A stretch of 12,562 nt of DNA, from IMG/VR virus record IMGVR_UViG_2703718813_000005; one strand, 5' to 3'. The notes under the pieces were generated by a model. It had not been told where the DNA came from and ran no database searches. It saw nothing but the letters and a program-made list of their open reading frames with translations. Below are positions 18-11,210 of the stretch, one piece after another. A program made the position numbers and the translations under genes. Each line of letters opens with the position of its first letter. Position 1 is the stretch's first letter. Origin of the DNA: a virus. Taxonomy: Duplodnaviria; Heunggongvirae; Uroviricota; Caudoviricetes.

Positions 18-40
18 AACCGCGCTCTTGCGGTTTTTTT
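18..40 (+). terminator. Rho-independent terminator
   Basis: Stem AACCGC (18-23) / GCGGTT (30-35) with a 6-nt loop, followed by a T-run to 40. Probably ends an upstream transcript. Confidence 0.6.
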
Positions 41-140
41 GTGTCATGAGCAGCATTACGCCCAAATTATGGTGGGGCGTGCAGGGCCAACTTCGGTTGG
101 GCCGGGTTCTTTGGTGACCGGTATTTCCACCCCTGTACGT

Positions 141-179
141 CTCACCACCAATAAGGTCGTGGAAAGCCTTGGTGGTGAG
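141..179. repeat. Perfect 11-bp inverted repeat in the leader of the rha-like gene
   Basis: CTCACCACCAA (141-151) and TTGGTGGTGAG (169-179) are exact reverse complements, separated by 17 nt and followed by TTATTAAAAAT. Lies about 30 nt upstream of the AAGAGG ribosome-binding site. Confidence 0.45.
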
Positions 180-209
180 TTATTAAAAATCACCAAAGAG
201 GCTGCCATC

Positions 210-755
210 ATGGCTACGATCCCAACCCTCACTCAACCTGAAATTGCCATCGTTGATGGTCAGGCTGTTACTTCATCCCTGGCTGTTGCCAACTTCTTCT
301 CCAAACGTCATGACGATGTACTGAAAAAGATCCGCACGCTTGAATGTTCCGCATCATTCACTGCCCGCAATTTTTCGGTGAGTGATTACACCGATTGCAC
401 AGGCCGCAAACTACCTTGCTATCAAATAACCCGCGACGGCTTTGCGTTTCTTGCTATGGGTTTCACGGGTAAACGTGCTGCCCGGTTCAAAGAGGCATAC
501 ATCAATGCCTTTAACCAGATGGAGAAACAGCTTTCAAAGCCCGCTGTACCGAGCGACGTTGCACATAACGCCAGCGTTCTCTGTTCCTACATTTCATCAA
601 TTCATCAGGTCTGGCTGCAGCAGCTTTATCCTATGTTGGCAAAAGCCGAATCTCCGCTGGCTGTTAGCTTATATGACTATATTAATGATGCTTCGGCGCT
701 GGCCTGCCTCATAAATTTGTCGCTGAACCCTTCAGAGGCAAGGGGGCGCAAATGA
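210..755 (+). CDS. Rha-family phage regulatory protein
   Basis: Translation MATIPTLTQPEIAIVDGQAVTSSLAVANFFSKRHDDVLKKIRTLE... matches the Rha/pRha family as I remember it. ATG at 210 has an AAGAGG site 9 nt upstream. The track ORF begins at a TTG at 39, inside the terminator, which I consider less likely. Stop overlaps the next start (ATGA). Confidence 0.7.
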   Translation: MATIPTLTQPEIAIVDGQAVTSSLAVANFFSKRHDDVLKKIRTLECSASFTARNFSVSDYTDCTGRKLPCYQITRDGFAFLAMGFTGKRAARFKEAYINAFNQMEKQLSKPAVPSDVAHNASVLCSYISSIHQVWLQQLYPMLAKAESPLAVSLYDYINDASALACLINLSLNPSEARGRK

Positions 756-976
756 TCCGGAATATTTTCAAACGTTTTACCAATCAGACTTTCCGTTGTC
801 CTCGTCCGGGTCAGTGGTACACCACGCCTGCAGGGCATGTTCTACGTGTTAGCCTGGTTGACCGTGAATGTCAGAAGGTGATTTGTGAACCGCTGGGCCG
901 TAATTACCGCGTCAGTATGCCGCTTATAGCCTTTCGCTCCGGAAAAAACATGAAGCATCTCGGAGGTGCAGCATGA
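752..976 (+). CDS. Small hypothetical phage protein (74 aa)
   Basis: ATG 752 overlaps the rha stop, with AGGGGG 5 nt upstream; its stop overlaps the next start (ATGA at 973). Translational coupling in an operon. No family recognised. Confidence 0.5.
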   Translation: MIRNIFKRFTNQTFRCPRPGQWYTTPAGHVLRVSLVDRECQKVICEPLGRNYRVSMPLIAFRSGKNMKHLGGAA

Positions 977-1791
977 GTATGGAGCTGATGGTTAAAGCGA
1001 TGAAAATTCGAGTGGGTAATCCATTGCGAAAACTGGTTCTGATCAAGCTGGCTGATAATGCCAGCGATCAGGGTGAGTGCTGGCCCAGCTACCAGCATAT
1101 TGCTGACCAGTGCGAGATTAGCAAACGTTCTGTGATGAATCATATTGCGGCCCTTTGTGAGTCCGGGCTGGTAAAAAAAGTCACCCGGAAAGGTGAAAAA
1201 GGTAACTCAAGTAATATCTATCTCCTTCATCTTGATGGTGCAGGAGATTCACTAGGGAGTAGTGCAAATAATTCACTATCTGGTGCAGCAAATTCACCAG
1301 GTAGTGCAGGAGTTGCACCAGGGGGTAGTGCAGGAGATTCACCCAGAACCAGTCACTCTTTTGAACCAGTCAAAGAACCAGTCAATGAACCAATAGCTGT
1401 TGGTGCATCTGCTGATGAGTCTGTGCGAGTTCGTTCAAACCGACCGGAATACTCTCCGGAGTTTGAGCAGGCATGGCTGGCATATCCCAAACGTACTGGT
1501 GGCAATTCAAAATCTGCAGCCTTCAAAGCCTGGAAAGCCCGTTTGAATGAGGGGGTAAACCCCGAAACCATGCTGGAAGGTGTGAAACGCTACGCGGGCT
1601 GGGTATCTGCGATGGGTAACAGCGGCACACAATTTGTGAAACAGGCTGTCACGTTCTTTGGTCCGGATCGTCATTTCGAAGAATCCTGGGAAGTTCCTGC
1701 GGTATCTGTAGCCGGACGCGAGGACCCGTACTTCAAAGCCAGTTACGACAACGTGGACTACAGCCAGATCCCGGCAGGATTCAGGGGGTGA
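973..1791 (+). CDS. HTH-domain protein, phage replication-initiator / replisome-organiser-like
   Basis: N-terminus LRKLVLIKLADNASDQGECWPSYQHIADQCEISKRSVMNHIAALCESGLVKK resembles the helix-turn-helix domain of phage replication initiators. A central Gly/Ser/Ala/Pro-rich linker is encoded by DNA repeats. GGAGG lies upstream of ATG 973. The replication role is an inference. Confidence 0.55.
   Translation: MSMELMVKAMKIRVGNPLRKLVLIKLADNASDQGECWPSYQHIADQCEISKRSVMNHIAALCESGLVKKVTRKGEKGNSSNIYLLHLDGAGDSLGSSANNSLSGAANSPGSAGVAPGGSAGDSPRTSHSFEPVKEPVNEPIAVGASADESVRVRSNRPEYSPEFEQAWLAYPKRTGGNSKSAAFKAWKARLNEGVNPETMLEGVKRYAGWVSAMGNSGTQFVKQAVTFFGPDRHFEESWEVPAVSVAGREDPYFKASYDNVDYSQIPAGFRG
1235..1395 (+). repeat. 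Direct-repeat tract inside the 973-1791 gene
   Basis: Exact 15-mer GTGCAGGAGATTCAC at 1238-1252 and 1328-1342, with degenerate copies at about 1262, 1284 and 1304 (roughly 20-24 bp period). GAACCAGTCA occurs at 1346-1355, 1364-1373 and 1375-1384. Encodes a low-complexity linker. Confidence 0.6.
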
Positions 1792-1793
1792 TC

Positions 1794-2282
1794 ATGAGTC
1801 TTTTGAATGACGTTCAGAAATTCATTGAAGCCCATCCGGGGTGTACTTCCGGAGACATTGCGGATGCTTTTGCAGGTTACTCACGGCAGCGCGTTCTGCA
1901 GTCAGCAAGCAAGTTACGTCAGAGCGGGCGTGTGGCTCACCGTTGTGAAGGAGATACACGCAGACATTTCCCGCGCCTGACTGAGAGAGCGCAGGAACCG
2001 GAACCACAACCAGTTCGAGAAACCAGACCTGTGCGCAATTTCTATGTCGGCACTAACGATCCACGGGTGATTTTGTGCCTGACCCGCCAGGCGGAAGAAC
2101 TGGAGTCCAGGGGCTTATACCGTCGTGCTGCAACGGTGTGGATGGCGGCATTCCGTGAAAGCCACTCCCAGCAAGAGCGAAACAATTTTCTGGCGCGTCG
2201 TGAGCGGTGCTTACGGAAAAGCAGCAAGCGCGCTGCATCGGGTGAAGAGTGGTATCTGTCAGGGAATTACGTGGGGGCTTAA
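1794..2282 (+). CDS. PerC-family-like transcriptional regulator
   Basis: C-terminal AEELESRGLYRRAATVWMAAF...ERNNFLARRERC fits the PerC/Pch signature as I remember it (LE-KGL-RRAA-W ... RRERC). N-terminal part looks like a winged helix. ATG 1794 has AGGGGG upstream; a GTG at 1788 is the alternative start. Confidence 0.5.
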   Translation: MSLLNDVQKFIEAHPGCTSGDIADAFAGYSRQRVLQSASKLRQSGRVAHRCEGDTRRHFPRLTERAQEPEPQPVRETRPVRNFYVGTNDPRVILCLTRQAEELESRGLYRRAATVWMAAFRESHSQQERNNFLARRERCLRKSSKRAASGEEWYLSGNYVGA

Positions 2283-2935
2283 TGAGTAATAAATATTGCC
2301 AGGCGCTGGTGGAACTGCGGAACAAACCAGCCCATGAACTGAAGGAAGTGGGCGATCAGTGGCGCACGCCGGACAACATTTTCTGGGGAATTAACACCCT
2401 GTTTGGCCCGTTTGTTCTGGATCTGTTCACTGACGGTGATAACGCCAAATGTGCCGCGTATTACACGGCGGAAGACAACGCGCTGGCGCATGACTGGTCA
2501 GAACGTCTTGCGGAGCTTAAAGGTGCTGCCTTTGGTAATCCCCCATACAGCCGCGCCAGTCAGCATGAGGGGCAATACATCACCGGCATGCGTTACATCA
2601 TGAAACATGCCAGTGCCATGCGTGATAAAGGCGGGCGCTATGTTTTCCTGATCAAAGCTGCCACCAGCGAAGTGTGGTGGCCGGAAGATGCAGATCATAT
2701 TGCTTTTATTCGCGGGCGTATTGGTTTTGAACTGCCTGCCTGGTTTATCCCGAAAGATGAGAAGCAGGTGCCGACAGGCGCTTTCTTCGCTGGTGCTATT
2801 GCTGTTTTCGACAAGACCTGGAAGGGACCGGCAATCAGCTACATCGGGCGCGATGAACTTGAGGCATGTGGTGAGGCGTTTCTGGCGCAGGTTCGCCAGC
2901 AGGCGGAAAAACTGGTCAGGGAGATGGCGGCATGA
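2282..2935 (+). CDS. Phage Dam-type DNA N6-adenine methyltransferase
   Basis: WRTPDNIF ... GNPPYS (NPPY catalytic motif) ... GRIGF is the layout of the small phage Dam family. ATG 2282 overlaps the upstream stop (TAATG). Confidence 0.8.
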   Translation: MSNKYCQALVELRNKPAHELKEVGDQWRTPDNIFWGINTLFGPFVLDLFTDGDNAKCAAYYTAEDNALAHDWSERLAELKGAAFGNPPYSRASQHEGQYITGMRYIMKHASAMRDKGGRYVFLIKAATSEVWWPEDADHIAFIRGRIGFELPAWFIPKDEKQVPTGAFFAGAIAVFDKTWKGPAISYIGRDELEACGEAFLAQVRQQAEKLVREMAA

Positions 2936-3258
2936 CGACGTTAACTCAATGCCAGCAGCAGGTGCTGGATATGCTGATTTCTTATCAGAAAGAACGTGGC
3001 TTCCCGCCAACCAATCAGGAGGTGGCAACCATGCTGGGATACCGTTCAGTGAATGCAGCGGTGGAGCATCTTCGCGCACTGGAGAAAAAAGGCGTCATCA
3101 CGATAAAGCGTGGTGTGGCCCGGGGGATCACGCTTCATACCGTGGTGAAGGACGACGACAGCGAGGCGGTCGGGATTATCCGCTCACTGCTTGCCGGTGA
3201 GGAAAACGCCAGGCTGCGTGCAGCCCATTGGTTACATGAGAGAGGCCTGAAAGTATGA
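2932..3258 (+). CDS. LexA N-terminal DNA-binding-domain homolog, no S24 peptidase domain
   Basis: MTTLTQCQQQVLDMLISYQKERGFPPTNQEVATMLGYRSVNAAVEHLRALEKKGVITIKRGVARGITL aligns closely with my recollection of the E. coli LexA N-terminal domain. Only 108 aa with an unrelated C-terminal tail. AGGGAG site upstream; ATGA overlaps on both sides. Confidence 0.75.
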   Translation: MTTLTQCQQQVLDMLISYQKERGFPPTNQEVATMLGYRSVNAAVEHLRALEKKGVITIKRGVARGITLHTVVKDDDSEAVGIIRSLLAGEENARLRAAHWLHERGLKV

Positions 3259-3650
3259 AGCTGATCCTGCCTTTTCCGCCCAGCGTGAACACGTACTGGC
3301 GACACCCCAACAAAGGGGCGTTTGCTGGTAAGAGCCTGATAAGCGCGGCGGGGCGAAAATTCCAGAGCGCGGCGTGTGCAGCAATAGTTGAGCAGTTACG
3401 TCGTCTGCCAAAACCAACGTCGGCACCTGCTTCAGTGGAGATCGTGTTGTTTCCTCCGGATAACCGGATCCGTGATCTGGACAACTATAACAAGGCGCTG
3501 TTTGACGCCCTGACCCACGCGGGTGTGTGGGAAGACGACAGTCAGGTGAAAAGAATGCTGGTGGAGTGGGGACCGGTTATCCCGGAGGGGAAGGTCGAGA
3601 TCACTATCAGTAAGTACGAAAAAGCGAGTTGCAAATTAGCAACTCGGTAA
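3255..3650 (+). CDS. rusA: RusA-family Holliday junction resolvase
   Basis: LPFPPSVNTYWRH ... RDLDNYNKALFDALTHAGVWEDDSQV follows the RusA pattern (PPS-N-YxR, DLDN, FDAL). About 131 aa. Confidence 0.85.
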   Translation: MKLILPFPPSVNTYWRHPNKGAFAGKSLISAAGRKFQSAACAAIVEQLRRLPKPTSAPASVEIVLFPPDNRIRDLDNYNKALFDALTHAGVWEDDSQVKRMLVEWGPVIPEGKVEITISKYEKASCKLATR

Positions 3651-3695
3651 CGGAATTGAGCAACACCCTAAATTTGGGTATTACCTCGTTAAAGA

Positions 3696-3715
3696 TACTG
3701 TATTTATGAACAGTG
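3696..3715. promoter_or_regulatory. Canonical LexA (SOS) box
   Basis: TACTGTATTTATGAACAGTG has CTGT (3698-3701), an 8-nt AT-rich spacer and ACAG (3710-3713). Sits about 100 bp upstream of the KilA-N gene start, next to -35-like TTGATA (3721-3726) and -10-like TAAGTT (3744-3749). Confidence 0.7.
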
Positions 3716-3812
3716 TATCCTTGATAACTATTAAAAATCGCAGTAAGTTCATCCTGCATCAACGAAAAGGGAGTGCAGTCCCGCTCGTGGATAAAAATTT
3801 GTGGAGAAACCA

Positions 3813-4628
3813 ATGAATCAGTTGCTTGTAATTGATGGCGTTTCTGTGCGCCAGTACTTCGAATCTAACTACTGTCTTAACGACCTTCAGAAAGCTGCTC
3901 TTCTTGCCGCTGGTGAGAATCGCTCCTCCCGTTCGCTGGAAGTTCACGAGTTTATGCGTCGTCCTGAAACGAAGGCTCTTGTGGAATTATTGGAAGAAGA
4001 AACTACGGGAGATTCCCGTAGTATTCCTGTCATCACCATTCAGGGGCGCAATGGTGGGACGTATGTCTGTAAAGAGCTGGTCTATGCATATGCAATGTGG
4101 ATCAGCCCGGCATTCAGCTTAAAAGTGATACGTACTTTTGATGCGCTTCATAATTCATCACCAGAAGAAACCACATCCGACAAAATTAAATCCGGGGTCA
4201 TTCTGCTTGAATCAGCAGCAAAGACTCTAAATCTGTCAAACTCCTCGAAACTTGGTGCATACCAGAAATTATCAAAGGTAGCTGGTCTTCCTGAACTTAT
4301 GCCGATCTATGCCATTGATGCACCTGCTGATGCGCCAGATGGTTCAAGCCGCCCTACGCTGTCGCTGAGTGCACTGCTGAAGCAGTATGGTATCCGCCTG
4401 ACGGCTAATCAGGCATATCACCAGATGGCGAAGCTGGGGATCGTTGAACAACGCGAACGATACAGTCGTACCGCGATTAACAACATCAAAAAATTCTGGT
4501 CGCTGACCGCGAAAGGCTGCATGTTCGGCAAGAACATCACCAGTCCTGCAAATCCGCGCGAGACGCAGCCGCATTTCTTCGAATCCCGATTCCCTGAGCT
4601 GTTAAAGCTGCTCGATACCGTTCATTGA
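3813..4628 (+). CDS. KilA-N domain protein (antirepressor-like)
   Basis: N-terminal region ...YCLNDLQKAAL...GTYVCKELVYAYAMWISPAFSLKVIRTFDAL matches the KilA-N signature (GTWVHP-LA...WLSP-F). ATG 3813 has GGAG 6 nt upstream. A GTG at 3801 is a less likely start. Confidence 0.7.
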   Translation: MNQLLVIDGVSVRQYFESNYCLNDLQKAALLAAGENRSSRSLEVHEFMRRPETKALVELLEEETTGDSRSIPVITIQGRNGGTYVCKELVYAYAMWISPAFSLKVIRTFDALHNSSPEETTSDKIKSGVILLESAAKTLNLSNSSKLGAYQKLSKVAGLPELMPIYAIDAPADAPDGSSRPTLSLSALLKQYGIRLTANQAYHQMAKLGIVEQRERYSRTAINNIKKFWSLTAKGCMFGKNITSPANPRETQPHFFESRFPELLKLLDTVH

Positions 4629-4635
4629 GGTGACC

Positions 4636-5625
4636 GTGAGAGCACTACTGACCCCTGAAATTGCCCCGCGTATGGGGATCGTATTGTTCAGACCAGGTTC
4701 AGAGCTGATGCCCTTGTTTATGCAGGGGCGTGTCCTGCTGGAGCCTGAGCCGGAACGTTATTCATCTTTCGCCAGTGGTGCCGTTCCGGCGGCATCACAA
4801 CCGCTGGCGGATGATCCTGCCGTTCGGGCCGTGTTCCGCAATGAGGCAGTGATCCGTCGTGCTGGTGGCGTGGAATGTCTTGAAAGCTGGTTACTTCGTG
4901 AAAAAGGCTGCCAGTGGCCTCATTCCGACTGGCACAGCGAGAACATGACCACAATGCGACACGCTCCGGGCGCAATCCGTCTGTGCTGGCACTGTGACAA
5001 TCTTCTCCGTGACCAGTTCACGGAACGGCTGGAATCAATGGCAACGGATAACTGTGCCCGCTGGGTGTTGTCTGTTGTGCGCCGTGATCTTGGTTTTGAT
5101 GACAGTCACGTTGTGACAATGCCGGAACTGTGCTGGTGGCTGGTTCGTAATGACCTGGCGGATGCCTTACCGGAAAGTGCAGCCCGTAAGGCCCTGAGAT
5201 TACCGAAGCCTGTTTTGCCGTCTGTCACCCGGGAGAGTGACCTTGTGCCTTCGGTTCCTGCCACCAGCATTATCCAGGATAAAGCGAAAAAGGTGCTGGC
5301 GCTGAAAGTGGATCCGGAGTCGCCGGAGTCTTTTATGTTACGCCCCAAACGTCGTCGCTGGGTTAATGAAAAGTACACGCGCTGGGTTAAGACGCAGCCG
5401 TGTGCATGTTGTGGTAAGCCAGCCGACGATCCGCATCACCTGATTGGCCATGGTCAGGGTGGAATGGGTACTAAAGCGCATGACCTTTTTGTGTTGCCTT
5501 TGTGCAGAAAACACCATGACGAACTGCATGCGGATACCGTGGCATTTGAAGAGAAGTATGGTTCCCAACTGGAGCTGATATTTCGTTTTATCGATCGCGC
5601 GCTGGCGATTGGTGTGCTGTCCTGA
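4636..5625 (+). CDS. DUF968-like protein with a Cys/His-rich C-terminal motif
   Basis: C-terminus CACCGKPADDPHHLIGHGQGGMGTKAHDLFVLPLCRKHHDELH looks like a zinc-binding nuclease-type motif typical of prophage DUF968 proteins found beside Q genes. Start is uncertain: GTG 4636 (GAGG 5 nt upstream) or GTG 4630. Confidence 0.55.
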   Translation: MRALLTPEIAPRMGIVLFRPGSELMPLFMQGRVLLEPEPERYSSFASGAVPAASQPLADDPAVRAVFRNEAVIRRAGGVECLESWLLREKGCQWPHSDWHSENMTTMRHAPGAIRLCWHCDNLLRDQFTERLESMATDNCARWVLSVVRRDLGFDDSHVVTMPELCWWLVRNDLADALPESAARKALRLPKPVLPSVTRESDLVPSVPATSIIQDKAKKVLALKVDPESPESFMLRPKRRRWVNEKYTRWVKTQPCACCGKPADDPHHLIGHGQGGMGTKAHDLFVLPLCRKHHDELHADTVAFEEKYGSQLELIFRFIDRALAIGVLS

Positions 5626-5642
5626 TTTTGTGGAGAAAGTTG

Positions 5643-6005
5643 ATGCGTGATATGTATGAAGTATTGGACCGCTGGGGAGCATGGGCTGCAGCAGAAAATA
5701 GTGGTGTGGACTGGCAGCCGATAGCGGCTGGTTTCAAGGGACTTTTACCACACGGTAAAAAGTCACGTCTCCAGTGTGATGATGATGAAGGCATCATGAT
5801 AGACGGTTGTGTGGCTCGGTTGCGAAAGTATAAACCAGAGGAATATGAGCTGATCATAGCTCACTTTGTTATTGGTATCTCATTACGCACTATTGCCAAG
5901 AAGAGAAGATGTTCAGATGGCACAATTAGGAAGGAATTGCAGACTGCCATGGGGTTTATCAGCGGTGTAATAATAACTATAAACCCCATTATGGTAGTTA
6001 ATTAA
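5643..6005 (+). CDS. Late antiterminator Q (phage 82 / QuuD-like family)
   Basis: MRDMYEVLDRWGAWAAAENSGVDWQPIAAGFKGLL...SRLQCDDDEG...CSDGTIRKELQTA matches the short Q family (LERWGAWAA, IAAGFKG, CSDG). GGAG upstream of ATG 5643. Confidence 0.85.
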   Translation: MRDMYEVLDRWGAWAAAENSGVDWQPIAAGFKGLLPHGKKSRLQCDDDEGIMIDGCVARLRKYKPEEYELIIAHFVIGISLRTIAKKRRCSDGTIRKELQTAMGFISGVIITINPIMVVN

Positions 6006-6573
6006 TGTGAATCCTATCACCAAGATAGTATAGTCCAAAAAATGTTGAAACAAGCATTTGCCATGTAAGGAATAAAAAGATAATGATATAGCACCAGTTT
6101 GCTATATCATTATTCAGTATGTTTATTAGTGGTGTGATAAAAGCGTTGAAAATCACTATGCATATGCTGAGGGCAGTTAAAAATGAAAATAACATGCACA
6201 GAAATAATCTTCTGGTAAGTTTCTCTTGAGTGTCAACAATTCTACCATTTTCTTTTGTTCGTGTAATTTTAATAAAAGGAGTGCCATTAGTTCCTATCAG
6301 AGGGTAGTCAATTTGTTCTCTGTTGAAAGTGGCTATTGCTGCAAGAGCTGCTATATAAAAACCTGGCAGATTTGATACAAATCCAGATATAGACTTAATA
6401 AAGCCGCCATCTTTTAGTAGGTCTGATGTAGGTATTTTAAATAAATAAAAGTAAAAAAAAGAAATCACAGCAAGCCCGGCAGGTGCATAAAAATCGTATG
6501 CGCACTTACCACTAATTCCCTTAATGAAAAGGTAACCAAACGGTCTAAATAAATGTGAAAATATACTAATCAT
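5998..6573 (-). CDS. Small integral membrane protein (191 aa, about four predicted helices)
   Basis: Hydrophobic segments GLAVISFFYFYLF, PGFYIAALAAIATF, LFLCMLFSFLTALSICIVIFNAFI and WCYIIIFLFLTWQMLVSTFFGLYYL. GAGG sits 5 nt upstream of the ATG, and the start lies 7 nt after the upstream gene's stop. Very AT-rich. Its 3' end overlaps the Q stop by a few nt. Confidence 0.6.
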   Translation of the reverse strand: MISIFSHLFRPFGYLFIKGISGKCAYDFYAPAGLAVISFFYFYLFKIPTSDLLKDGGFIKSISGFVSNLPGFYIAALAAIATFNREQIDYPLIGTNGTPFIKITRTKENGRIVDTQEKLTRRLFLCMLFSFLTALSICIVIFNAFITPLINILNNDIANWCYIIIFLFLTWQMLVSTFFGLYYLGDRIHIN

Positions 6574-6580
6574 ATTAGCC

Positions 6581-7609
6581 TCACATGACCTCGATAATCT
6601 TATTCACAAACTCCATGTTAATACTATCATAAGAATCCTTTAAGCGCGAAGAAAAACCATTTATTACACTCTTTTTGATAAATGTTTTTTCCAGCCCATC
6701 CAGCCTTACATTTGAAGTTTGAAGGTCAACTTGTCTTGTGAATCCTGTCTCTGGCTCTTTGAATTTTATTTTTATTAAGTCATAACCTCCATTTTTATCT
6801 TCTTTAAAGAAGTTTGAGACAGATTTTATCCATCCAAGGACATTGTTGGGGCCATGGTTTGGTACTAAGCGTAAAGTACTTTCTTTAGGAATAATAGCCG
6901 CGTTAACATCTGGCGCATTAATAGTTCTGTATTCATTCTTTACCAAAACGACATCAGAAAGTCCTTCTTTATTTATTTTATTGAACAAATCTTCATCTAA
7001 CTTTCCAGATATATCAAAGACTGGCTTGTATAATACTTTTATTTTTTTCTTTGTTAAACTTGACACTTCATTTGTTAAAGTGTGACATGAAAAGATATCT
7101 TCATTATCTTTGGCTACGTTAAAGAGAACTTTATTCAGGAAACCATTTATTTTTGCTGTGGAAACTCCTGGTATTGGCATAAAACTCATGTCATACGTTC
7201 GCATATTTCCGTCTAGAGAAATAATCATATGAGAAGAAACTTCGTAACCTTCACCTTCCTCATGTTTTGGTGATATTTCGGTGCGAACATCTGTATTAAT
7301 GTTTTTTAATACAGTAGTGCTTCCATTTTTATCTACAGCATTAATTAAAAGACCAAGATGGCTGGGTTTTTTATCGGCTCTGTTTGATAAGAATATTACA
7401 TCTTGTAAAGTTAAAACTAAGTCTCCTTTTTCATAACTGTGCATCATTGCTTTACAACGTACTATTTTAGAAGCAAGTTCACGCATTGTTGGTACCGGGC
7501 AAACACAGTTCGATCTGATGCTATCATCAATTTTCTGTGTACGGTATTGTGTATCGATCGTAATAGTATGATGAGTTATTACTCTACTGAATGCGTCCAG
7601 TGTAGCCAT
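6581..7609 (-). CDS. Hypothetical soluble protein (342 aa), first gene of the AT-rich cassette
   Basis: Long uninterrupted ORF in an AT-rich segment, with Lys/Asn/Ile-rich composition typical of foreign low-GC DNA. No signal peptide or transmembrane segment visible. Weak ribosome-binding site. No family recognised. Confidence 0.6.
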   Translation of the reverse strand: MATLDAFSRVITHHTITIDTQYRTQKIDDSIRSNCVCPVPTMRELASKIVRCKAMMHSYEKGDLVLTLQDVIFLSNRADKKPSHLGLLINAVDKNGSTTVLKNINTDVRTEISPKHEEGEGYEVSSHMIISLDGNMRTYDMSFMPIPGVSTAKINGFLNKVLFNVAKDNEDIFSCHTLTNEVSSLTKKKIKVLYKPVFDISGKLDEDLFNKINKEGLSDVVLVKNEYRTINAPDVNAAIIPKESTLRLVPNHGPNNVLGWIKSVSNFFKEDKNGGYDLIKIKFKEPETGFTRQVDLQTSNVRLDGLEKTFIKKSVINGFSSRLKDSYDSINMEFVNKIIEVM

Positions 7610-8218: not shown

Positions 8219-9286
8219 ATGTTTAATACTGTAAAAATATCCAGTCGTGAATTAATCAACGCCGACTGCCTGGAATTTATCCGGTCGTTACCCGAAAATT
8301 CTGTTGACCTGATAGTCACGGACCCGCCGTACTTTAAAGTGAAGCCTGAGGGCTGGGATAACCAGTGGAAGGGCGACGATGATTACCTGAAGTGGCTGGA
8401 CCAGTGTCTTGCGCAGTTCTGGCGGGTGCTGAAACCTGCCGGAAGTCTTTACCTGTTCTGTGGCCATCGCCTGGCATCTGACATTGAAATCATGATGCGT
8501 GAACGCTTCAGTGTGCTGAACCATATTATCTGGGCGAAGCCGTCCGGACGCTGGAACGGGTGCAACAAGGAAAGCCTGCGGGCGTATTTCCCCGCCACAG
8601 AGCGCATTCTGTTCGCGGAACATTATCAGGGGCCGTATCGTCCGAAAGATGCCGGGTATGAGGCGAAGGGCAGGGCACTGAAACAGCATGTGATGGCACC
8701 GCTGATTGCTTACTTTCGTGATGCGCGCGCTGCCCTGGGGATAACGGCAAAACAGATTGTGGATGCCACAGGAAAGAAAAACATGGTGTCGCACTGGTTC
8801 AGTGCCAGTCAGTGGCAACTGCCGGACGAAAGTGATTATCTGAAATTACAGGCGCTGTTTGCCCGGGTGGCAGAAGAGAAGCATCAGCGGGGTGAACTGG
8901 AGAAGCCCCACCACCAGCTGCTGGAGACGTATACTTCACTGAACCGGCAGTATGCGGAACTGCAGAGTGAATATAAGCATCTGCGGCGGTATTTTGGCGT
9001 GACGGCGCAGGTGCCGTACACGGATGTGTGGACGCATAAACCGGTGCAGTACTATCCCGGGAAACATCCGTGCGAAAAACCGGCAGAAATGCTGCAGCAG
9101 ATAATCAGCGCGAGCAGTCGTCCGGGTGACCTGGTTGCAGATTTTTTCATGGGGTCGGGTTCGACAGTCAAAGCCGCGATGGCGCTGGGGCGTCGTGCAA
9201 CTGGCGTTGAGCTGGATACCGGGCGTTTTGAACAGACTGCGCAGGAAATCAGGGATGTATTTAGCGGGAGCGGTTTGCAGAAGTAA
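8219..9286 (+). CDS. DNA adenine methyltransferase (DPPY ... FxGxG order), orphan
   Basis: N-terminal SVDLIVTDPPYF (motif IV) and C-terminal DLVADFFMGSGSTVKAA (motif I), with HPCEKP. Resembles the YhdJ/phage adenine methylase layout with an insertion in the middle. Confidence 0.85.
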   Translation: MFNTVKISSRELINADCLEFIRSLPENSVDLIVTDPPYFKVKPEGWDNQWKGDDDYLKWLDQCLAQFWRVLKPAGSLYLFCGHRLASDIEIMMRERFSVLNHIIWAKPSGRWNGCNKESLRAYFPATERILFAEHYQGPYRPKDAGYEAKGRALKQHVMAPLIAYFRDARAALGITAKQIVDATGKKNMVSHWFSASQWQLPDESDYLKLQALFARVAEEKHQRGELEKPHHQLLETYTSLNRQYAELQSEYKHLRRYFGVTAQVPYTDVWTHKPVQYYPGKHPCEKPAEMLQQIISASSRPGDLVADFFMGSGSTVKAAMALGRRATGVELDTGRFEQTAQEIRDVFSGSGLQK

Positions 9287-9349: not shown

Positions 9350-10075
9350 ATGGATGTTGCCTGCTCTGTGGTCCTGATTCGCTATCCGATAGATATTTTT
9401 CTTGAAAAAGAAAAAGTTTCACTCGATGCCGGAAGTGTTATGCTTGTTGCCAGAAATATAAGAGGGCTTTTCTGTGCTTATGCCGACAGAGTGAAAATGG
9501 CAGATATAAGTAACAGCGTCGTCAATCAGTATCTGGAAAGGGAGTGTGAACTGACGGAGTATACACCGACAAAAATGCCTCTTTATTTGATGTCTGATAT
9601 TTACAATACGGAACTGGCGGAGGCTTTAATAACCCAGCATAGTGAATCCAGTGATACTTTGAAGGATTTCTCTGTTATAACCGCATTTTCATGTATCTCC
9701 TTATTTGCAACAGACAGGCGTCTGCCATTATTTTTGTCCGGTGCTGTAAATAATATCAGCTGTAAAGTAAGGGCTATAATTCAGACCGACATATCGGCAG
9801 GCTGGATGCTAGGTGTGATTGCATTACAATTGCATATGAGCGAAAGCTTGTTGAAGCGAAAACTTAAGGATGAAGGTTATAGCTTTAGTCGGTTGTTGCT
9901 GGAGGAGCGAATGCGTGTTGCTGTTAATCTTGTATGTTTCCAGCGAGAGTGTGGACAAGCGATAGCGGAAAAATGTGGTTACTCAAGTAAGTCCTATTTC
10001 ATTTCTGTATTTCACCAGTATTATGGTGCACCACCTGAGAGCTATGCATATTTGCAGAAAGCAGACGTTATCTGA
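9350..10075 (+). CDS. AraC-family transcriptional regulator (AppY-like)
   Basis: C-terminal AraC-type double HTH (GWMLGVIALQLHMSESLLKRKLKDEGYSFSRLLLEERM ... IAEKCGYSSKSYFISVFHQYYGAPP). N-terminus MDVACSVV resembles prophage AppY. AT-rich gene. Confidence 0.75.
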   Translation: MDVACSVVLIRYPIDIFLEKEKVSLDAGSVMLVARNIRGLFCAYADRVKMADISNSVVNQYLERECELTEYTPTKMPLYLMSDIYNTELAEALITQHSESSDTLKDFSVITAFSCISLFATDRRLPLFLSGAVNNISCKVRAIIQTDISAGWMLGVIALQLHMSESLLKRKLKDEGYSFSRLLLEERMRVAVNLVCFQRECGQAIAEKCGYSSKSYFISVFHQYYGAPPESYAYLQKADVI

Positions 10076-10687: not shown

Positions 10688-10926
10688 GGAAATGTTAAAT
10701 GACTCACAATTCGGTTGATGGACTATTGTCTGATCGATGGAAGTCTTGTAAAAACGAGCCAGCATAGTGAATCCCCCTGTGCGGAGGGGCGTCTGACATG
10801 GTCTCCATAGCGATGGTCATAATACGCAGATTCAGTAGTCAGGCTGAATCTACCGGGAGGCACCCGGCACTATGCTGCTTATGGTGTATACATAGCGATC
10901 GGCCCCTCTCCGGAGGGGCTTTTTTA
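10688..10926 (+). repeat. Tandem structured element, copy A (sRNA candidate)
   Basis: Shares with copy B the blocks AAATGTTAAAT, CTCACAATTC, GTGAATCCCCCTGTGCGGAGGGG (10767-10789) and ACCGGGAGGCACCCGGCAC (10852-10870). Ends in an intrinsic terminator. Confidence 0.55.
10902..10926 (+). terminator. Rho-independent terminator of copy A
   Basis: GCCCCTC / GAGGGGC stem around a CTCCGGAG palindrome, followed by TTTTTT. Confidence 0.7.
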
Positions 10927-10947
10927 TGCAGGGAAAAGGCTGTGTTG

Positions 10948-11177
10948 TGAAATGTTAAATTCCTCACAATTCATGAGGTTGATGATTGTCTGATTGATGA
11001 GGAGTTTGTTAAAAAAAACGGGCATGGTGAATCCCCCTGTGCGGAGGGGTGATATCGTATCATTTCCTGTGTGGCCGACTGATATCACGGACATTTGTTC
11101 ACCGGGAGGCACCCGGCACCATGCAGTATACAGAGATTAGGCATACATCCAGGCTCCTCATCGCAGGAGCCTTTTTA
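10948..11177 (+). repeat. Tandem structured element, copy B (sRNA candidate)
   Basis: Same conserved blocks (11027-11049, 11101-11119), about 260 bp after their copy-A counterparts, with diverged sequence between them. Ends in its own terminator. Confidence 0.55.
11152..11176 (+). terminator. Rho-independent terminator of copy B
   Basis: GGCTCCT (11152-11158), loop CATCGC, AGGAGCC (11165-11171), then TTTTT. Confidence 0.7.
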
Positions 11178-11180
11178 CAT

Positions 11181-11210
11181 GTAAAAAAACCGCTCCTGGG
11201 AAGAGCGGTT
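11181..11210 (-). terminator. Rho-independent terminator, minus-strand orientation
   Basis: AACCGCTC (11188-11195) / GAGCGGTT (11203-11210) stem is preceded on the + strand by an A-run (11183-11189), so the T-run follows the hairpin on the minus strand. Forms a face-to-face pair with the 11152-11176 terminator. Confidence 0.5.

Follow-up and report, generated by a model that had tools for sequence, protein, structure and literature searches.

The 162 bp between rusA and a KilA-N gene of a lambdoid prophage hold a 20-mer that is very likely a LexA operator, next to a predicted sigma-70 promoter facing the KilA-N gene. By inference, a LexA-gated promoter for KilA-N, DUF968 and probably the late-gene antiterminator Q is well supported. 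The reading that we favour, with a confidence that leans only slightly to the positive side, joins two statements, that is, (i) that a mobile promoter cassette has come to separate rusA from the main part of the KilA-N gene and (ii) that host LexA would, through the box in this cassette, a putative high-affinity operator, gate an internal promoter of KilA-N, DUF968 and Q. The DNA that was analysed, hereafter the window, is a stretch of 12,562 nucleotides. It is early-right DNA from a lambdoid prophage of the SfIV/PhiR49_1/CPS-53-like kind, a type to which the O104:H4 prophage belongs as well, with a Stx-phage-like backbone (Table 1). Three elements of what follows – co-transcription of Q, a phage-encoded protein with a LexA DNA-binding domain and a second SOS box – had been passed over in the first-pass annotation of this DNA.

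Table 1. Features of the window, with coordinates, strand (a dot where none applies) and main characteristics.
Feature	Position	Strand	Remarks
Rha/Ash-type regulator ORF	39-755	+	cut by window edge; matches PHROG 'anti-repressor' families
C4 antisense RNA	65-152	+	Rfam RF01695, 83.6 bits; overlaps start of Rha/Ash ORF
O-like replication protein	973-1791	+	
PerC/YfdN	1788-2282	+	
Dam-type methylase	2249-2935	+	
LexA-like protein	2932-3258	+	108 aa; LexA winged-helix DNA-binding domain and short conserved tail; Pfam LexA_DNA_bind, E = 2.9e-19
RusA Holliday-junction resolvase	3255-3650	+	upstream neighbour; Pfam RusA
8-bp hairpin	3625-3646	.	rusA end and left cassette border; terminator-like on minus strand only
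Mosaic cassette	3627-4055	+	breakpoints ~3627 and ~4055 (blastn against Stx2a_1447); last 8 rusA codons, gap with box and promoter, KilA-N codons 1-81
Gap with box	3651-3812		162 bp
SOS box, LexA operator-like palindrome	3696-3715	.	TACTGTATTTATGAACAGTG; ~-60 to -41 of predicted promoter
P(kilA-N), predicted sigma-70 promoter	3721-3749	+	-35 TTGATA 3721-3726, 17-bp spacer, -10 TAAGTT 3744-3749
Conserved two-tier hairpin in predicted 5' UTR	3758-3792	+	inner stem GGGA/TCCC 3769-3782, loop GUGCAG
KilA-N domain protein	3813-4628	+	271 aa; N-terminal APSES-like DNA-binding domain, helical linker, C-terminal domain without assigned fold
DUF968/HNH-like protein	4630-5625	+	always beside KilA-N gene; Pfam DUF968, E = 3e-81
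Late-gene antiterminator Q	5628-6005	+	tightly packed after DUF968; Pfam Phage_antitermQ, E = 2.8e-45
Weaker SOS-like box	7297-7316		17.4 bits; inside PDC-M53 A gene
N6_N4 DNA methylase gene	8219-9286		holds second strong SOS box
Second strong SOS box	8227-8246	.	TACTGTAAAAATATCCAGTC; 21.4 bits; codons 3-9 of N6_N4 DNA methylase gene

The SOS box and the promoter beside it

The first-pass annotation had proposed a near-consensus LexA operator in the intergenic gap that follows rusA, at a candidate promoter for KilA-N, and this part of it is supported: the position is exact, the box lies between the end of rusA and the KilA-N ATG, and a conserved sigma-70 match facing KilA-N adjoins it. The 16-bp core, CTGTATTTATGAACAG (3698-3713), has the CTGT-N8-ACAG layout with AT-rich spacer of an SOS box. 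This layout is found in a single copy in the window (expected, 0.15; at least one copy in 28 of 200 shuffles), and the stricter TACTGT-N9-CAGT in two, starting at 3696 and 8227 (expected, 0.01; two copies in none of 200 shuffles). Scored with an approximate, symmetrised LexA weight matrix built from 21 E. coli LexA sites, the box reaches 22.0 bits, above the best of 300 window shuffles (19.8 bits). Both this score and the heterology index, which is 5.0-7.2, equally approximate and derived from the same sites, fall inside the range of these E. coli operators (12.8-27.1 bits and 0.25-9.5, respectively). The box matches the 20-nt LexA consensus at 16 of 20 positions; a search of the window with the full consensus and three mismatches gave no match, because the box has four.

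Could such a box be without function, i.e. a palindrome that arose by chance, or a relic that merely moved with the cassette? The E. coli copies are nearly identical (144 of 186 at 99% identity or more), which makes within-species conservation of the box uninformative and leaves purifying selection not measurable, and the nearest orthologues carry degenerate boxes, which partly overlap the rusA stop codon. Against this, the box outscores every shuffle, the stricter pattern is scarcely expected by chance, LexA-like boxes recur at orthologous promoters (see below) and all the substitutions that were seen shift the box towards the consensus. In the one diverged E. coli allele (89.5% identical) and in SfIV, the box is kept and its last G is replaced by the consensus A, and the flanks show substitutions and an 11-bp deletion. 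On the statistics and the direction of these substitutions, a non-functional box appears unlikely, indeed very much so in our estimate. The literature and datasets that were searched yielded nothing on LexA binding or DNA-damage induction at this site, and literature searches for the box sequence, KilA-N with DUF968, KilA-N with LexA or antirepressor, and truncated LexA in coliphages produced no match to the locus.

The promoter next to the box, P(kilA-N), has a score of 10.2 and ranks fourth among some 125,000 positions in a weighted -35/-10 scan of both strands of the window; it falls below the 9-of-12 threshold of a simple promoter scan, which found no promoter between 3400 and 4000. Transcription would start near 3756. 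When the region is aligned with its counterparts in Kluyvera, Leclercia, Kosakonia, Citrobacter and Raoultella, T1, A2 and T6 of the -10 are invariant, and the TTG of the -35 is kept in five of the seven cross-genus sequences. In four lineages, the box, or a degenerate counterpart of it, ends exactly 5 nt before the -35. In the window, 5 bp separate the end of the box from the -35 that follows, and the box overlaps neither the -35, nor the -10, nor the start site of the best promoter; the only promoter that it does overlap is a weak alternative (TTGGGT-16-TACTGT, score 5.5). This position is unusual for LexA repression, so that repression could be weak. The KilA-N ATG is preceded by a GGAGA Shine-Dalgarno sequence, and distances of up to 105-236 bp between box and ATG are known for real SOS boxes (PMC8072944).

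The hairpin of the predicted 5' UTR is conserved. Folded sequence by sequence, all 20 orthologous upstream regions have TGCAG in a hairpin loop, on top of 14 different inner helices, and every variant, gap or no gap, has a hairpin with the loop (G/U)UGCAG 35-50 nt upstream of the KilA-N start. Per-sequence folding was used because RNAalifold on a MAFFT alignment of the hairpins, in which the stems are misaligned, returned no structure. There is no T run behind the hairpin of the window, and a search of Rfam with the gap and the hairpin returned no family. Two minus-strand ORFs of the gap, 3607-3813 and 3759-3947, have no family matches and were dismissed.

The other strand offers one more way to read the box, which might control an SOS-induced, leftward non-coding RNA of about 105 nt, antisense to the rusA end. 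Its promoter would be TTGATG-17-GATTTT (3762 to 3734, minus strand), and the RNA would have the box at about +12 to +31 and stop at the hairpin at 3646-3625. The promoter candidate (score 7.6, rank 40) and the hairpin, which has a T5 tail on the minus strand and no T run behind it on the plus strand, are both inside the cassette. Yet the GATTTT -10 is poor, terminator-like matches are not enriched (two found versus 0.6 expected), no ORF family or Rfam match came up, and the arrangement was not seen in the other genera examined, all of which makes such an RNA a far-fetched explanation for the box.

A mosaic cassette, and LexA-like boxes at orthologous genes

The gene order RusA–KilA-N–DUF968–Q is conserved across Enterobacterales, and the corresponding module (rusA–KilA-N–DUF968–Q) is present in 2,408 of 5,426 complete E. 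coli genomes. The gap sequence is much rarer (186 of the same 5,426), and in about 92% of the E. coli genomes with the module KilA-N follows rusA after 20 bp, with neither gap nor box. In no-gap relatives such as Stx2a_1447, SfII, SfV and the prophage of strain SMBL, the KilA-N protein has a different N-terminal domain. The 186 cassette-bearing genomes include O104:H4 outbreak isolates, in which the cassette sits in a stx-less prophage, and it is also found, almost unchanged, in about 100 IMG/VR contigs. The best match to the window among complete E. coli genomes covers 96% of it and is of the no-gap variant; the whole window is found in none of the collection searched. At the left border, 30 nt (3619-3648) have a counterpart with 90% identity within the KilA gene of Stx2a_1447.

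What regulates this cassette? The immunity region of the prophage lies outside the window, and in relatives the cassette is found in prophages with three different immunity repressors, all of which have a Peptidase_S24 domain. Since the cassette travels with three unrelated immunity types, its regulator is to be sought in the host or in the conserved nin module, rather than in CI, and LexA or a conserved LexA-like protein is the only recognisable candidate.

Orthologous KilA-N genes of other genera have LexA-like boxes as well. Five of about 78 upstream regions reach at least 13 bits, versus a background of about 0.01 per 330 nt at the same loci. In Erwinia (L028), a 17.2-bit box lies over the -10 of a 13.0-bit promoter (TTGCCA-17-TATATT); the boxes in Edwardsiella (L025, 19.3 bits) and Serratia (L013, 14.6 bits) overlap the core promoter; and two further loci (L093 and L098) have TTGCAT-17-TATTTT with a palindrome in the spacer. 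These boxes overlap the -10 or the spacer, whereas that of the window is upstream of the -35. In the closest orthologues from other genera (73-80% identical), the same place is taken by no more than degenerate half-boxes, with scores of 0.3-11 bits; therefore, LexA control is not a conserved property of this class of promoters. Strong LexA control seems to have been acquired repeatedly rather than inherited from a common ancestor.

The distance from KilA-N to DUF968 and from DUF968 to Q is 1-2 bp, and there is no convincing plus-strand terminator between 3813 and 6005. Owing to this tight packing, a promoter at the box would also make Q. We infer that LexA binds, that it represses from the position of the box, where transcription starts, that it runs on into Q and what the phage would gain, and these elements would combine as follows. 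In a lysogen, host LexA on the box would hold a repressor-independent promoter low, until DNA damage triggers RecA-stimulated cleavage of LexA and the promoter is freed. The resulting transcript would begin near 3756 with the 5'-UTR hairpin, continue through KilA-N and DUF968, and read through into Q. The three proteins would thus be made as a direct SOS response, in parallel to the self-cleavage of a CI of the S24 type, as found in cassette-bearing relatives, and the pay-off would be earlier or stronger expression of the late genes upon induction.

Candidate proteins at the box and behind it

The box next to KilA-N has company. Every relative whose sequence extends to the N6_N4 DNA methylase gene has the second strong box at the start of it, and non-synonymous variants keep the arms of this box. 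In cI genes of the SMBL/O104:H4/SfII type, all outside the window, a nearly perfect box of 25.5-27.1 bits lies inside the gene, about 210 nt after the start (7460-7479 in L084, 3838-3857 in L099 and 29167-29186 in SfII (L206)); its spacer varies, such that the encoded residue is C, Y or F, and the CTGT/ACAG arms stay. These patterns suggest selection for LexA-type binding at several phage sites.

As for the surroundings of these downstream boxes, the two convergent genes after Q (5998-6573 and 6581-7609, both on the minus strand) match a candidate defence system, PDC-M53 of PADLOC (B, E = 1.7e-54; A, E = 7.8e-32). The methylase gene is followed by an AraC-family regulator gene (9350-10075, plus strand), at the position of which related prophages carry tRNA genes and Stx phages also stx2. 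Further on, there are two tandem copies of the sRNA family STnc100 (10733-10929 and 10993-11182, plus strand; 120.8 and 141.3 bits).

Besides host LexA, the prophage itself supplies a possible ligand for these boxes, i.e. the short LexA-like protein, which is encoded two genes upstream of KilA-N and conserved just upstream of rusA in many Enterobacterales prophages. LexA_DNA_bind covers its residues 1-65; it has a winged helix and no S24 protease domain, as befits a truncated phage LexA. Its match to TIGR00498 (71 bits, below the cut-off of 110.95) is confined to model positions 1-91. It aligns without gaps to residues 2-69 of E. coli LexA, in which five residues (39, 41, 42, 44 and 45) contact DNA (PMC3091678). 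Four of the five are kept (S39, N41, A42 and E45), and E44 is replaced by V. Homologues in other genera are also short (106-116 aa), with S39 and N41 invariant and positions 44 and 45 variable. A LexA-type Ala-Gly cleavage site ('LLAGE') in the tail was dropped as a candidate, as it is not conserved in the family. Judging by the retained contact residues, this protein could bind the box next to KilA-N, although only once the early operon is on.

It is the main rival that could be set against host LexA, or a complement to it. The box would in that case be used, mainly or additionally, by a truncated LexA incapable of self-cleavage, an early-operon product that would bind the box next to KilA-N, the methylase box and, in relatives, the cI box. 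It would act either as a late shut-off repressor, taking the place of host LexA once the latter is cleaved, or by activating the KilA-N–DUF968–Q promoter from beside the -35, in the manner of gp6 of GIL01, which turns on a late promoter and is a truncated homologue of LexA, too (PMC6182141). A box that directly precedes the -35 is as well placed for an activator as for a repressor, and the persistence of boxes in coding regions through non-synonymous changes fits this reading. So does their distribution, since at least one box of 22 bits or more was found in all three phage genomes or early regions with a LexA-like gene that were scanned, at odd places: inside cI in SfII, at KilA-N in SfIV and at three sites in the O104:H4 prophage, whereas lambda has no box above 15.4 bits. 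However, the roughly 92% of relatives without the box have the LexA-like gene all the same, and the Erwinia, Serratia and Rahnella loci have boxes with no LexA-like gene within 3 kb, and the box is therefore independent of the LexA-like protein. The protein also lacks the dimerisation domain of LexA, the variability of positions 44 and 45 makes its DNA specificity uncertain, and a repressed lysogen would not produce it, such that host LexA is left as the sole candidate to bind there. We consider this reading doubtful, albeit worth keeping in mind. A more elaborate scheme, and a rather unlikely one, is a two-LexA circuit, in which host LexA would hold several prophage boxes in the lysogen, and the truncated phage LexA would then time Q and the late genes, block cI transcription and shut the SOS response down. 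Its basis is the pattern of boxes, which are found in the methylase gene, at KilA-N and, in relatives, in cI, with none above 15.4 bits in lambda. To our knowledge, a circuit of this kind has been described only for the Gram-positive tectivirus GIL01.

The KilA-N protein raises a different question. The first-pass annotation had seen in it an antirepressor that would enable induction without autocleavage of the repressor, and this part of the annotation fares poorly. The protein scores above the gathering score of Pfam KilA-N (PF04383; E = 1.3e-15), has an APSES-like fold according to its match to the Mbp1 fold, and belongs to PHROG 129, which is labelled 'transcriptional regulator'. Searches of Pfam, PHROG and NCBIfam revealed no ANT/KilAC, Bro-N or Tum/DinI-like domain in it; there is no NCBIfam match, and the C-terminal half matches nothing. 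The only recognisable domain is thus of the DNA-binding type. The gene is invariably linked to the DUF968/HNH-like gene and Q, and the protein is most likely a DNA-binding partner of DUF968.

A LexA-controlled antirepressor that inactivates the prophage repressor and renders autocleavage dispensable, as in 186 Tum, N15 AntC and the Gifsy phages, would nevertheless be in keeping with a LexA-quality box upstream of the gene that is not part of the immunity region and, as in Gifsy, has a palindrome in front of it, and the C-terminal domain without assigned function leaves room for protein binding. Several observations tell against it. In most relatives, KilA-N directly follows rusA, lacks its own promoter and belongs to the early operon, which is under the control of the repressor; it therefore cannot act upstream of repressor inactivation there. 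A LexA-gated promoter across the family and a repressor that does not cleave itself, as would mark an antirepressor module, are not what was found, as some 92% of the E. coli genomes with the module have no box and the three repressors that go with the cassette in relatives carry Peptidase_S24, whereas known LexA-gated antirepressors serve non-cleavable repressors (PMC3121763). Moreover, one and the same cassette goes with three different repressors, whereas antirepressors are usually repressor-specific. Finally, the window has a separate antirepressor-like gene, the Rha/Ash-type ORF, together with a C4 antisense RNA that is presumably of the P1 immI type, and this pair is, on its family matches, a better antirepressor candidate than KilA-N. 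An antirepressor function of KilA-N is thus improbable, and host LexA acting on a promoter for KilA-N, DUF968 and Q is the reading that we retain.

Known LexA-controlled phage promoters

If LexA gates a promoter that reads into Q, late genes would be wired directly to the SOS response, and not solely via cleavage of CI. Since late genes comprise lysis functions and, in Stx-phage relatives on the same backbone, toxin genes, this would affect how fast lysis or toxin release sets in and at which threshold of damage. A further, unexplored layer of cross-talk between phage and SOS response, in prophages that are very common in E. coli and Shigella, is suggested by the truncated LexA together with the additional boxes.

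[quoted passage not shown] Like the prophage of the window, these are lambdoid, their box lies well beyond the replication genes in the downstream direction and is not part of the immunity region, a palindrome precedes it, and rightward genes are driven independently of the prophage repressor. The differences concern (i) the genes, which are a dinI homologue and a small antirepressor in Gifsy versus KilA-N, DUF968 and Q in the window, (ii) the repressors, which are non-cleavable in Gifsy and have S24 domains in the cassette-bearing relatives and (iii) the box, which is inside the promoter in Gifsy and upstream of the -35 in the window. Tum of coliphage 186 and AntC of N15 are cited as LexA-repressed antirepressors in PMC8044961. 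What they have in common with the system proposed here is that host LexA gates a phage promoter, through which SOS reaches the phage without cleavage of CI, but they have no sequence or domain similarity to the KilA-N protein. The latter matches, by its N-terminal domain, Pfam KilA-N and the Mbp1 fold, in common with P1 KilA and the Mbp1/Swi6 fold, yet it is devoid of the KilAC/ANT domain of P1 KilA and Ant-type antirepressors, and its C-terminal domain resembles nothing in the searches.

The gp6 protein of GIL01 is a truncated homologue of LexA that switches on the late promoter P3, for which it uses a site at the -35 (Fornelos et al., 2018; PMC6182141). Both systems have boxes for host LexA, along with a site next to the -35, at a promoter leading to late functions. 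However, GIL01 is a Gram-positive tectivirus without CI, and gp6, which activates its promoter, has a site of its own rather than a LexA box, whereas the LexA-like protein of the window is a putative binder, recognised by its retained contact residues. The canonical SOS operators of E. coli (recA, sulA, umuDC, dinB and others) have the same CTGT-N8-ACAG layout, AT-rich spacer and a comparable score, but mostly overlap the -35, the -10 or the start site, whereas the window box is centred near -50. Taken together, these comparisons suggest that the box at the KilA-N–DUF968–Q promoter is most plausibly a fresh variation on known LexA-controlled prophage promoters.
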